This document shows, piece by piece, positions 52,288 through 63,137 of a stretch of 63,137 nt of DNA. Origin of the DNA: Promethearchaeota archaeon (lineage in GTDB: Archaea > Asgardarchaeota > Lokiarchaeia > Sigyniarchaeales > SOKP01); contig JAGXNO010000019.1 in assembly GCA_019894975.1 (NCBI GenBank), positions 1-63,137 on the forward strand, given 5' to 3'. The notes below the pieces were generated by a model that did not search any database, was not told the origin of the DNA, and was given only the letters and a program-made list of their open reading frames with translations. The translations under genes were made by a program, and so were the position numbers. Each line of letters starts with the position of its first letter. The first letter of the stretch is position 1.

Positions 52288-52550
52288 CTAATAATCTTTT
52301 TCTTTAGATTCTTTCGAGGATGAATACCAATCTAGCCATTCCTTGCGCCGACTCTTTTTTTGTTGCGACTCATCTGCAGCAGTGGCATTTTCATTTCTTA
52401 CTTTTTTCCAATCTCTGTCAAGTTCATGCCGTGTTAAGGATAAACCACATGATTGGCAAACCATTTGTTTAATAGCTGATTGGTATTTCATGAACCCACC
52501 GCATTTCAGGTATACTTTCAGGTAAGCGTACTTTCTGGGCAACGGGCCAT
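52288..52550 (-). CDS. Zn-ribbon protein, two exons (52550-52533, 52503-52288)
   Basis: Spliced product MARCPECGGFMKYQSAIKQMVCQSCG... restores an ATG start and a complete CxxC...CxxC; the ORF-track TTG version has only one N-terminal Cys. Confidence 0.85.
52504..52532 (-). other. 29-nt BHB-type intron in mRNA
   Basis: Exon helix AUGGCCCGUUGC/GCGGUGGGUUCAU; central CCAG/CUGA (3 bp + C.A); bulges AA|A and AA|U; intron stem GUA/UAC + GCUU/AAGU. Confidence 0.82.
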
Positions 52551-52904
52551 TTATCTACCAACTACTTTTTTATTTTTCATGATCTCTTAACGTAATAGAA
52601 TTATCCAAAATTAAAATAATTATTGGATTCAAAAAATAACTCAAAACCAAAATTGTTGATCCAATAAATTCTAATATAGTTGATTTTCTATCCATATTCG
52701 TTTTATTCTCACCTTCCAATAAAAATAAAAAAATTAGGCAATTTTGTTAAAAACAAGTTTCTAACGAGTTTGTAAAATTTCTAGAAGGTCAACACCATCT
52801 TATAAACACCTATAAGCAATAAGTTTAGAATCTCTAAACATGATGAAAAATGTATTTAGTAAAATTGTTTATTAACACCTGTATATTTTTTTCTTTTCAT
52901 AATC

Positions 52905-53345
52905 TTATTCCCGTGCGTAAAAATCAGAATCTGGAATAGTCGGCTTCGACTTGTCTTTGAATTTAAACTGCTTCTCTTCTAAATATTCTACTAAATCAGA
53001 CTCCCTAACTATAAATTTAGACCTCTCCCATATTTCATCTCGTCTCCTGTATGGATCATCATTATCGTCACAGACAATATCATCATAAGAGATTAATGAA
53101 GCAGGATTTAAACCAAAATCTATCAATAACTTCCGTGGATCTACATACAATGTGGTAAATCTAACAGCAATTATAATATTATTATTACCCTGAAAAACCC
53201 GACCATCAGTACACTTTACATCATCATCAAATATTAAGTAGGAAATACCGCTTACTTTATTGCTATTAAGGAAAGATATTTCATAAAAATTTAAAAACTT
53301 ATGAAATTCCTCATTAGATTCAACAAAAAATAACCACAGAAACAT
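52905..53345 (-). CDS. Hypothetical protein
   Basis: 146-aa ORF with protein-like composition, no motif recognised. Confidence 0.5.
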   Translation of the reverse strand: MFLWLFFVESNEEFHKFLNFYEISFLNSNKVSGISYLIFDDDVKCTDGRVFQGNNNIIIAVRFTTLYVDPRKLLIDFGLNPASLISYDDIVCDDNDDPYRRRDEIWERSKFIVRESDLVEYLEEKQFKFKDKSKPTIPDSDFYARE

Positions 53346-54323
53346 AATATTAACTTCTTTTTTTTTTATCTTTTAATATTATAAAAAAAATAAAAAAACA
53401 ATATATAAAATTATACCCAGTCCAATATTTTTGTTTTTTTATTGAATTGATTTTCAAAATCCTTCCATATGTAGGCTTCCCTATGCTGAGGTTTTATGTC
53501 ATAATTCACTGCTATTAAAATATCAGGATATAACATAGTACTTCTCGTTCCTATATTTCTTATCTTATCTTTTATAATATTACGTAAGCATAAAATTTTA
53601 ACTACCGAGAAGAGCTTCTCCAAAAAATTGAGCAATTTTTAGATAAGCAGTTTAAATAACAATTAAACCTAAAATTTCATAATTATAAATCAAAAAACTA
53701 ATATTAAATCAATTACCTAACATAAGTAGGTAGGGTGTTGAACAATATGGTTGAGAATAACAATCTCAAAGTCAAGTTAAATAGTTTTAATATATGCAGA
53801 ATTGGAGCAATTATAAAAATCTTAGAAAATTTAGTCGATCTAAACAGAGTTAAAAACCATATCGAGGCTAAACATAATTACAATGATTTTTCGAAGTACA
53901 TCAAGAGTTTTGAATTTTGTATATGTTTCTGCTTACATCAATTCTATTTTTGTCAACAAACATATCTGCTGAAATGTTAAAAATATCTTTTGCTAATATT
54001 ATGTATAATTTGCAATAGTAATTCCTTTACAGCTACATATATTATAAAATCTTTTATAACAAATAATTTCTTACTCATTTTAAAACTTTAAGAAATTTTC
54101 TAAAATTTTAATATAAATCAATAATCGATTGAGTTAAGTAAGAAAAAAAAATTTAACAAAATTCCGAAAAAAAGCAGGAATATTAATATCCAGAGTCTTC
54201 TGATTTACCAAAATATTCTTCGTAAGCTTTGTTTGAGGGTTAGTTACCGCAAATGATGGTAGATATAAAGACTGCCCGGAATAAGCGTTTGAAAGAACAT
54301 AATAGTCAAATAAAAGTGTAAAT

Positions 54324-55328
54324 ATGCATGTAGCAATACTCTCTCCGATTGCCTGGCGGACACCACCTCGGCATTATGGTCCTTGGGAATATTTAGTTTC
54401 ATTATTGACTGAAGGACTTGTTGAAGAAGGGGTTGAAGTAACTTTATTTGCTACGAAAGATTCTCAAACTAAAGGAAATCTTATTGGAGTATGTCCTCGG
54501 GGCTATGAAGAAGATAAAGAATTATTACCAAAAGTATGGGAGTGTATACATATTGCTGAATTGTTTGAAACAGGAGATAATTTTGACATTATCCATAATC
54601 ATTTTGATTTTCTTCCATTAACTTATATGAAAATGACAAAAACCCCAATAATCACTACAATTCATGGATTTTCTTCTCCAAAAATATTACCTGTATATAA
54701 AAAGTATAACAAGAAATGTTATTATGTATCAATAAGTGATTCAGATCGTAGCCCTGAACTTGATTATATTGCTACGGTTCATCATGGAATTGATTTAAAT
54801 CAATTTACATATAGGGCTGGAATAGGTAATTATTTATTATTTTTTGGACGGATTCATCATGATAAAGGAGCTAAAGAAGCCATTGAAATATCACTTAGAT
54901 TTGGTATGAAATTAATAATGGCAGGGATTATTCAAGATAAAAATTATTTTAATCAAAAAATAAAACCCTATTTAAATAATGACAAAGTTCAATATATTGG
55001 AAGTGTAAGCCCTGAACGAAGAAATAAGTTATTAGGGGAAGCTTATGCTTTAATTCATCCTATTAATTTTAATGAACCATTTGGATTATCTGTTGTTGAG
55101 GCAATGGCTTGCGGTACTCCAGTTGTAGCTTTTAATAGAGGAAGTATGCCTGAAGTAATAGCAGATGGTAAAACTGGATTTTTAATTAATTCAATTGAAG
55201 AAGCTGTTAAAGCATTAAAAAATATAAAAATCATAAATAGGTTTGATTGTCGCAAATGGGTTGAAGAAAAATTCAATGTCAAAAGAATGGTAAAAGATTA
55301 TATTCATATATATGAAAAAATCTGCTAA
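54324..55328 (+). CDS. GT4 family glycosyltransferase
   Basis: PPRHYGPWE, TTIHG, FGRIHHDKG, EPFGLSVVEAMACGTPV. Confidence 0.92.
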   Translation: MHVAILSPIAWRTPPRHYGPWEYLVSLLTEGLVEEGVEVTLFATKDSQTKGNLIGVCPRGYEEDKELLPKVWECIHIAELFETGDNFDIIHNHFDFLPLTYMKMTKTPIITTIHGFSSPKILPVYKKYNKKCYYVSISDSDRSPELDYIATVHHGIDLNQFTYRAGIGNYLLFFGRIHHDKGAKEAIEISLRFGMKLIMAGIIQDKNYFNQKIKPYLNNDKVQYIGSVSPERRNKLLGEAYALIHPINFNEPFGLSVVEAMACGTPVVAFNRGSMPEVIADGKTGFLINSIEEAVKALKNIKIINRFDCRKWVEEKFNVKRMVKDYIHIYEKIC

Positions 55329-61591: not shown

Positions 61592-61721
61592 AATTATTAT
61601 CTCTTCTAAATATATTGAGTTAGGTTGAATATTGATAATTTAGTAGTATAAAAATGCAAGTTTTTAAAATTTAATTGTAATGAAGAATAACTAAATGGAG
61701 AACCCTTTGGTTATAAATATG

Positions 61722-62657
61722 CTATTCTTCTTGTAATGATTCTTCTTCACTTTTTTTCTCGATTTTAGAAGTTTGAGAGAAAGCTTGAGACTGTTCTTCT
61801 AGATAACTTATTCTTTTTTCTAAAATAGTCATCGTTTCTATTATATTATTGATAATTTTATTTGTCTCCCTAATTTCAAAATGGAGATCCCCGAGTTGAT
61901 TAAGGATAAATGTCATAACTTTAGATTCTTGAACTGGTTCAATTAACCAATTTATTATATTTTGCAGAAATCTTTGATTATCTAAAGAATTTAACCCAAT
62001 GTTTGAATCAGAGGTAAAGATATCAATATCTCCGATTGCGACTACTTTTCCTTGTCCAAATTCTGTAAATGCCGCAATTATTTGCTCTTCCTCTTCACCT
62101 TCTTTAATCCATTGTTCATTGGTGCTATCAAATATTTCTGGCCAAGAATCTTGTTCAGATTTTAATAAAGGTTTCGCATCTTTACTTAGGAAAATTGAGC
62201 ATGCTCCACCAATTCTAATTTCCCTAATGTGCTTTGTTAATTGATTCTTTGAGAATTTTTGAATATGTAATGTACTTGTACAGTTTTGATTTGCCTTATT
62301 TACTTCTTTAATTAGGTTTTTTTCAAATTTTATACCAAATTTTCCAGAAAGATCATTAATATTAGTCTTCTGAAGATAATCAGACCCGTACTCACTCAAT
62401 AAAAGCAAACCCCCTCCCGATCTTACGAAATCAACTACAATTTTAATTTCATTAGAAGAAAATAAATCATCGATGGCATTCCCAATAACTAAAAGATCCA
62501 CATCCCTTACAACATCTTTTACGAGATGTTTGCTATCGTTTAATTTTATGGTTATATCCAATCTTCTTAATAAATTTGCAAAATCAGAGAATTCTTTATC
62601 TTCTATGTTCAACATTTCATTATGAGCGGTGTCAAATAAAATAGTTTTTTGCAGCAT
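61722..62657 (-). CDS. IFT52/GldG-like (GIFT, DUF4350-like) domain protein with C-terminal coiled coil
   Basis: ILFDTAHNE, FVRSGGGLLLL, GKVVAIGDIDIF, NIINWL, then heptad region. Confidence 0.7.
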   Translation of the reverse strand: MLQKTILFDTAHNEMLNIEDKEFSDFANLLRRLDITIKLNDSKHLVKDVVRDVDLLVIGNAIDDLFSSNEIKIVVDFVRSGGGLLLLSEYGSDYLQKTNINDLSGKFGIKFEKNLIKEVNKANQNCTSTLHIQKFSKNQLTKHIREIRIGGACSIFLSKDAKPLLKSEQDSWPEIFDSTNEQWIKEGEEEEQIIAAFTEFGQGKVVAIGDIDIFTSDSNIGLNSLDNQRFLQNIINWLIEPVQESKVMTFILNQLGDLHFEIRETNKIINNIIETMTILEKRISYLEEQSQAFSQTSKIEKKSEEESLQEE

Positions 62658-62860
62658 ATTTTCCGGCGTCTCTAAAGAATTAATCTCTCTAAAGGAAGGT
62701 CAATAGTTATTACTTAATTATTAAAATAAGGTTATGTCTCTAATGAAAATTCAAATATAAAAATCATTTTATATTGTTTCTCTATACCAAAAATTTTTAA
62801 CTCTTTTTTGGATTAGATCAAGTGATATAAATATGAAAAATATCAAACGGAAAATGATTT

Positions 62861-63137
62861 ATGACAAATAATTTAGCTATTATCGGTCTCTCCTGGGGAG
62901 GAAATATTGGGAATACACCCATATTACCCTAAACGAAGGGAAAGGTAAATTTGTTGATTATTTTGCTCAAAAAGCGGATATTGTCGTAAGATTTAATGGT
63001 GGAAATAATGCAGGACACACAATTGTTGCTGACGGAATTAAATATAAATTTAAGTTAATGCCTAGTGGAGCCCCTTTAGAAAAGGAATGTGTTATAGCGA
63101 ATGGATGTGTTGTCGATCCAAAGGTATTGCTTGAAGA
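62861..63137 (+). CDS. purA: Adenylosuccinate synthetase, 5' part, two exons (62861-62900, 62933->63137)
   Basis: Spliced: [45 protein letters not shown]...MPSG...IANGCVVDP; runs off window end. Confidence 0.93.
62901..62932 (+). other. 32-nt BHB-type intron in purA mRNA
   Basis: GAAATATTGGGAATACACCCATATTACCCTAA inserted within the GAC codon; central helix GGGG/CCCU, bulges AG|G and AA|A, intron hairpin AAUAU-GGG/CCC-AUAUU. Confidence 0.88.

Follow-up and report, generated by a model that had tools for sequence, protein, structure and literature searches.

How an archaeon can make a protein from a gene whose reading frame is broken shortly after the start codon is the question raised by a contig of 63,137 nucleotides (nt) from a Promethearchaeota archaeon (assembly GCA_019894975.1, contig JAGXNO010000019.1), the whole of which is called the window here. 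Two unrelated genes in the window, purA and a gene for a small zinc-ribbon protein, are each interrupted by an insert of about 30 nt that contains an in-frame stop codon. Both inserts are very probably archaeal bulge-helix-bulge (BHB) introns within protein-coding genes of this Lokiarchaeia-type Asgard archaeon, which would be cut out by the endonuclease EndA, with the exons joined by RtcB, in a process that is most likely constitutive. The assembly (G000, in which the window is contig C86) comprises 3.9 Mb on 175 contigs, with a G+C content of 31.6%, a completeness of 95% and a contamination of 8.6%. The organism is read as an Asgard archaeon of Lokiarchaeia type from marine sediment.

The purA gene lies at the end of the window on the + strand. 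From the ATG at 62861, exon 1 (62861-62900) supplies 13 codons plus the first base of an Asp codon, with the same N-terminus as in intronless relatives; its open reading frame (ORF) then enters foreign residues and terminates at TAA (62930-62932), beyond which, from 62935, the family match continues in a different frame. Exon 2 (62933-63137) runs to the end of the contig and matches the Pfam family Adenylsucc_synt at 62935-63135 (E 1.5e-25). The sole deletion that yields the Asp codon (G62900 plus AC at 62933-62934) of the WGDEGKGK motif is that of 62901-62932, a 32-nt insert that starts 40 nt past the A of the ATG, sits inside WG-D-EGKGK and ends with the in-frame TAA. Around this insert, the exon bases GGGG (62895-62898) and the intron bases CCCU (62927-62930) form a central helix with four of four pairs. 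On its two sides are a 5' bulge AG/G (62899-62901) and a 3' bulge AA/A (62931-62933), where the slash marks the cut behind the second base, and these cuts (62900/62901 and 62932/62933) are the junctions that homology defines. The intron hairpin (62903-62925), with an inner helix AAUAU.GGG / CCC.AUAUU, is present in the minimum free energy (MFE) fold. The gene is single copy in the assembly, where a C-terminal piece is found at the end of contig C120.

The zinc-ribbon gene is read on the - strand from an ATG at 52550. Its first exon (52550-52533) encodes only MARCPE, an N-terminus that intronless relatives share, and is followed by a 29-nt insert (52532-52504) with an in-frame TGA at 52520-52518. 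Removal of 52532-52504 joins MARCPE to CGGFMKYQSAIKQMVCQSCG and produces a four-cysteine zinc ribbon, with the second exon (52503-52288; CGGFMKY...CQSCG...) contributing an ORF of 71 amino acids plus the stop codon. The junction is therefore MARCPE/CGGFMKY, and the insert starts 18 nt past the A of the ATG, inside CPE-CGG. The exon strand CCAG (52538-52535) pairs with CUGA (52509-52506) through three pairs and a C.A mismatch, the bulges are AA/A and AA/U, and the intron hairpin is stacked straight onto the central helix. An outer, exon-exon helix is added by a 5' strand (52547-52539) that forms nine pairs, including G-U, with 52502-52494. The MFE fold of the 61 nt from the ATG contains the entire helix-bulge-helix-bulge-helix arrangement at -14.4 kcal/mol. 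The protein has no family assignment in Pfam or NCBIfam.

The geometry found at both inserts is that of the tRNA intron at position 37/38, which consists, in order, of a 4-nt exon strand, a 3-nt bulge with the cut behind its second base, a hairpin, a 4-nt intron strand, and a second 3-nt bulge that is cut likewise. Applying this 2/1 cut to both bulges yields GAC (Asp) in purA and CPE/CGG in the zinc-ribbon gene, the same sequences as in the intronless alleles. In both genes, the cut sites predicted from structure coincide with the junctions that the protein requires. The initial annotation of the window had drawn attention to BHB-type inserts in two unrelated genes, each with a premature stop codon, with A-rich bulges and with no sequence in common, and all of this held up, as did the positions of both inserts. 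When introns predicted by ARAGORN in tRNA genes of the same genome were used to calibrate the cut rule, two of six fitted position 37/38, these predictions being messy. Group I and group II introns and inteins are ruled out at both sites, as inserts of 29 and 32 nt with stop codons leave no room for a ribozyme core of hundreds of nt or an in-frame protein-splicing domain.

Further information on these sites came from 61 genomes of the same order, in which 31 purA loci and 30 zinc-ribbon loci were examined. An insert was present at the identical purA codon in 13 of the 31 loci, with the others reading uninterrupted through ...TGGGGnGAy/GAR..., and three unrelated insert sequences of 32, 31 and 30 nt occupy this one site while the central helix and the bulges stay constant. 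Across 10 aligned relatives, the purA central helix is invariant or G-U compatible (a single C-to-U change keeps a G-U pair), and pairs of the inner helix change on both sides (for example U-A, G-C and A-U, or U-A versus A-U). From ten purA-site sequences, RNAalifold recovered the helix together with the 3-nt bulge and a stacked inner helix, with three of ten pairs compensatory; since the aligned introns are related to one another, this covariation is supportive and carries no formal probability. The zinc-ribbon gene, matched in 53 of the 61 genomes, has an insert at the same point in four of the 30 loci (28, 29, 29 and 31 nt), with double changes in the stems, and the intron of one relative (L130) has a complete 4-bp CCAG/CUGG helix. 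Most of the other zinc-ribbon loci have an N-terminus of MARCPE/CGG or CPE/C(G or A)G and no insert. Taken over both sites, the lengths of the inserts in these relatives (28-32 nt) cover all three classes modulo 3.

Strong purifying selection acts on purA genes with an insert, as seen from nine intron-bearing alleles, all of which have 419 codons after the junction and pairwise ratios of non-synonymous to synonymous substitution (dN/dS) of 0.05-0.13. In a purA tree, alleles with and without the intron are mixed within the genus; only two changes of state are required by well-supported branches, against five by a parsimony count, so repeated gain or loss of the intron is likely. The introns are precisely missing from close relatives, some of them in the same genus, which argues for the introns being dispensable. 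They look like minimal elements (1 nt, a hairpin, 4 nt and 2 nt, about 30 nt in all) that are gained and lost among close relatives. In a genus-g6 relative (G040, contig C126, 25496-25727), the purA match falls into two overlapping pieces that include a TAA, at query residues ~14-29, which may mark an intron at another position in purA.

To what extent other genes of the genome are interrupted in this way was addressed by a motif-free census, in which ORFs from 2.7 Mb of a same-family relative (G043) were compared with G000 without any use of structure; this census was partial and applied a 90-amino-acid protein filter. It identified eight genes besides purA and the zinc-ribbon gene with inserts that are absent from the relative: EF-1alpha (contig C107), a BcrAD/BadFG-type activase (C22), CdhC (C131) and RNase HII (C94), each with 30 nt; a UXS-like epimerase (C164) and an AMP-binding enzyme (C101), each with 31 nt; a Ras-like GTPase (C89) with 32 nt; and GyrB (C66) with 53 nt. 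EF-1alpha is single copy in the genome, and its insert holds two in-frame stop codons. In the reverse comparison, the relative was found to have its own stop-containing inserts of 30-31 nt that are absent from G000 (in the L170 region, C1 ~489557 on the - strand; C7 ~23173 on the + strand; C1 76172-76204 on the + strand), one of which splits the DGN/RRW motif of a likely undecaprenyl-diphosphate (UPP) synthase.

These additional genes alter several expectations in the initial annotation. Its suggestion of many cases across the genome is borne out by the eight further genes, and the counts lead to an estimate of tens of such introns per genome, not hundreds. A length of 3n+2, taken there as part of a shared design, is not a rule, since the lengths in G000 are 32, 29, 30, 30, 30, 30, 31, 32, 31 and 53 nt; nor is nearness to the ATG, since the introns of EF-1alpha, the activase, the UXS-like epimerase and the AMP-binding enzyme lie ~100-260 codons into the gene. 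The placement of the inserts in highly conserved motifs applies to nearly all cases, but the census sees only inserts flanked by conserved sequence and is therefore biased toward such locations. Two other length differences were considered and set aside: an AT-rich insert of ~127 nt in an OppC-like permease gene (contig C132, ~15003, - strand), seen relative to G043, does not fit a BHB intron and may instead be an indel, a longer intron or the sign of a frameshift in the gene, and a 24-nt case on contig C133 does not fit the BHB motif either.

The structure at junctions fixed by homology was scored against random positions. The BHB core score, which is the sum of the central and inner helices with a maximum of 8, is 7, 6, 8, 8, 7, 7, 8, 6 and 5 at the nine homology-defined junctions of the genome; random positions reach 6 or more with a probability of 0.08, 7 or more with 0.014, and 8 with 0.0012. 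The score of 5 belongs to GyrB, and becomes 7 at the register that fits the LKGLEGVRKRP sequence of the relative. With GyrB counted as a failure, six of the seven motif-free junctions score at least 6 (binomial ~2e-6), and all seven do so once GyrB takes its ortholog-supported register. The AMP-binding junction, where homology is weak, was set by the reading frame alone and has a core score of 8/8. BHB geometry at these junctions is thus strongly enriched over chance. Among the ten introns of the genome, the first base of the bulge is A in eight of ten 5' bulges and in all ten 3' bulges. In four of the ten introns the exon strand of the central helix reads UGGG or GGGG, and in the GyrB intron it reads GGCG. 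In addition, three of the introns end in CC(C/U)UAA(A). These patterns may be due to a preference for certain targets or to shared ancestry.

Removal of such introns would depend on a splicing machinery, and the genome encodes two EndA genes, RtcB and Archease, all of them elsewhere than in the window, in line with the tRNA-type splicing proposed in the initial annotation. The EndA alpha protein (C22:27129-27737; 202 amino acids) is closest to chain B (186 amino acids) of PDB entries 3p1z and 3ajv (E 1e-34), which we take to be the Aeropyrum pernix EndA heterotetramer and its catalytic subunit. It retains the catalytic Tyr, His and Lys residues and aligns without gaps to 3p1z_B over the KPR loop region, and in the second, beta protein (C55:16593-17195; 200 amino acids) Phe and Thr replace the Tyr and His. 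From these sequences EndA is predicted to be of the two-subunit type, with a catalytic and a non-catalytic subunit that presumably assemble with each other. Pre-mRNA BHB splicing and relaxed motifs have been linked to hetero-oligomeric EndA (PMC2738675), and an (alpha-beta)2 EndA with an L1 loop has been placed in Asgard archaea (PMC5829648). RtcB (a match of 562 bits) and Archease are convergent neighbours on contig C90 (C90:699-2447). A second fragment of RtcB, comprising its C-terminal two thirds, is found on a 1.2-kb contig (C48:320-1171) and may represent a second copy or contamination. ARAGORN detected only 29 tRNA genes in this 95% complete genome, 13 of them with introns, and many others probably escape detection through introns that are non-canonical or occur more than once per gene. 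This count fits the report that Asgard tRNA genes are heavily interrupted (bioRxiv 10.64898/2026.10.13.758758).

Inserts of about 30 bases that have the shape of tRNA introns and break their host genes mean that the messages almost certainly need to be cut and re-joined before translation. The pre-mRNA is expected to fold locally, with four exon bases upstream of the insert pairing with four bases near its 3' end, so that a 4-bp helix forms with a 3-nt bulge at either end, on opposite strands; beyond the bulges would lie the intron hairpin on one side and an exon-exon helix of varying quality on the other. The two-subunit EndA would then cut behind the second base of each bulge, and RtcB, with Archease, would join the exons to restore the Asp codon of the GDEGKGK loop in purA and the zinc-ribbon knuckle CPxCG. 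For the purA and zinc-ribbon messages, cutting and joining in this manner is what the gene sequences predict, and this splicing is, most likely, a constitutive step without which the proteins are not made.

Several observations weigh against this interpretation. Both motifs are relaxed, as the first inner pair of purA is A.A and its outer helix is mismatched (four of six pairs), and the 4-bp central helix of the zinc-ribbon gene includes a C.A. Neither insert folds with a better energy than shuffled sequence (z = -1.06 and +0.90). When the genome was scanned naively for a lenient BHB motif combined with ORF repair, no excess over cut sites shifted by 1-2 nt appeared in any score class, because so short a motif has too high a background in an AT-rich genome of 3.9 Mb. 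When junction peptides were filtered for BHB structure and compared with G043, only four clear cases emerged; this filter, which required 60 or more codons downstream and a well-formed outer helix, misses relaxed motifs and small proteins. Four sediment runs labelled 'metatranscriptomic WGS' (whole-genome shotgun), which are probably DNA, contain relatives at 90-95% identity and leave the 5' end of purA uncovered. One contig from a sediment run has an intronless zinc-ribbon N-terminus, with differences at synonymous sites that assign it to another organism, so it says nothing on splicing. An exact-match search of metagenome contigs for the spliced EF-1alpha junction gave no match. Finally, that EndA acts on these mRNA substrates is something we infer from the sequences of the enzyme and its targets.

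Other explanations of the inserts must be weighed against constitutive BHB splicing. The initial annotation considered that splicing might be an on/off switch, in which PurA, the zinc-ribbon protein and others would be made in a condition-dependent manner, as in the splicing of HAC1/XBP1 by IRE1/RtcB. Unspliced messages would yield peptides of only 23 and 10 amino acids from the two genes, so the level of splicing necessarily sets the level of protein, and the outer helix of the zinc-ribbon gene begins directly after the ATG, where structure and initiation could interact. The host genes, however, are housekeeping genes that share no common pathway (EF-1alpha, GyrB, RNase HII, purA and CdhC), the cuts lie in 3-nt BHB bulges and not in the twin 7-nt loops of IRE1, and the precise absence of the introns from close relatives, some of the same genus, fits dispensable elements under constitutive removal better than a switch. 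A search for the IRE1 RNase domain (Ribonuc_2-5A) gave no match, and positive controls were equally silent, so that result is uninformative. No support for a switch emerged, and we consider it improbable.

Still less credible is that the ribosome, rather than a nuclease, deals with the inserts, by bypassing as in T4 gene 60 or mitochondrial byp elements or by frameshifting, with no splicing of RNA. The inserts (28-53 nt) do resemble known bypass gaps, and they offer a stop codon after the take-off region and a hairpin. Yet the Asp codon of purA is split (G62900 and AC at 62933-62934) and hopping is unable to build a split codon, neither gene has a matching pair of take-off and landing codons, landing on GAA in the CCUGAAA of the zinc-ribbon gene would be out of frame, and a -1 shift in purA would place ~11 foreign residues in the GDEGKGK loop; moreover, the 30-, 31- and 32-nt versions at the one purA site would need three different recoding mechanisms. 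It is equally far-fetched that the genes are decaying, with random insertions or assembly errors in pseudogenes, even though every insert carries a stop codon or disrupts the frame, and gene-calling programs would label such genes pseudogenes or misplace their starts. Against decay stand the occupation of the same site in many independent assemblies, the intact length and low dN/dS (0.05-0.13) of intron-bearing purA, the presence of purA and EF-1alpha as single copies, the covariation of the stems and the enrichment of BHB geometry at the junctions.

Within the interpretation of the inserts as BHB introns, one may ask how they came to interrupt so many genes. A tentative answer, which at present seems rather unlikely, is that minimal BHB introns proliferate by insertion into mRNA-coding DNA, for example when the EndA/RtcB reaction runs backwards and the product is reverse transcribed, or through another route of intron transposition, and favour codons that supply the exon half of the helix (UGGG or GGGG, encoding Trp and Gly in conserved motifs). 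The three unrelated introns at one purA codon in different clades would fit such a process, as would the exon helix strands of (U/G)GGG or GGCG in five of ten introns and the patchy distribution among close relatives.

Other genes of the window were also identified. Next to purA, at 61725-62657 on the - strand, is a gene for a 311-amino-acid protein that matches the IFT52 GIFT domain (E 2.9e-11) in addition to DUF4350 and ABC_transp_aux, the former being a eukaryote-flavoured domain name within an Asgard genome. The region at 57348-60073 on the - strand encodes two tandem TldD/PmbA-family metallopeptidases, followed by an HpaB-family gene at 60149-61591, and is ordinary.

If the introns are spliced, processing of the tRNA type would be a routine step in the expression of core genes (EF-1alpha, GyrB, purA, RNase HII and CdhC) in the lineage closest to eukaryotes. 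Interrupted genes in metagenome-assembled genomes of Asgard archaea will be called as pseudogenes, mis-started or fragmented, so that metabolic reconstructions and estimates of completeness are distorted. Where transcription and translation are coupled, ribosomes must be kept off unspliced messages. The precise gain and loss of these introns between close relatives provides a tractable system for analyzing the spread of protein-spliced introns. If minimal introns do proliferate as outlined above, then lineages beside the eukaryotic stem already tolerate and process many interrupted mRNAs, and splicing and translation would have to be kept apart or put in order to some degree.

Introns of this structural class are familiar from archaeal tRNA genes, in which BHB introns were reportedly described by Marck and Grosjean in 2003, and from the cbf5 pre-mRNA of Crenarchaeota, in which a BHB intron is said to have been described by Watanabe in 2002 and Yoshinari in 2006. 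The purA and zinc-ribbon introns share with archaeal tRNA and rRNA introns the 4-bp helix with a 3-nt bulge on either side, each bulge being cut once, and the predicted use of EndA and RtcB (PMC5829648). They differ from them in that the host is an mRNA without a tRNA body, that the cuts must respect the reading frame, and that the exon strand of the central helix consists of codons, often for Trp or Gly (UGGG, GGGG). Small non-spliceosomal introns that shift the frame and are cut by a protein endonuclease are also found in HAC1/XBP1, where RtcB joins the exons in animals; unlike the introns described here, which give no sign of regulation, those are cut by the KEN domain of IRE1 at twin stem-loops under the control of stress.

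A literature search, which was incomplete, found BHB introns in coding sequence reported only for crenarchaeal cbf5, along with one case in a Haloferax 5' untranslated region (UTR), and found no paper on mRNA introns in Asgard archaea. The Haloferax volcanii case is an intron in the 5' UTR of the HVO_1309 mRNA that was confirmed in vitro as an EndA substrate (PMC7714728); the introns in G000 differ in that they lie in coding sequence and not in an untranslated leader, and the Haloferax EndA is homodimeric. The closest published case found is the cbf5 intron, which concerns a single gene family of Desulfurococcales and Sulfolobales and whose splicing has been shown experimentally (Yokobori 2009, PMC2738675). 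As in cbf5, short BHB or relaxed-BHB introns interrupt coding sequence, their presence varies among relatives, their removal is needed for an intact protein, and the host lineage has a hetero-oligomeric EndA of relaxed specificity. Unlike in cbf5, at least ten unrelated genes are interrupted in one Lokiarchaeia-type genome, with more in its relatives, and the ten introns in G000 are all of about 30 nt, except for one of 53 nt. The mechanism is therefore of a known kind, and what is new is the lineage in which it would act, the number of genes that it would serve, and the uniform, minimal size of the introns.

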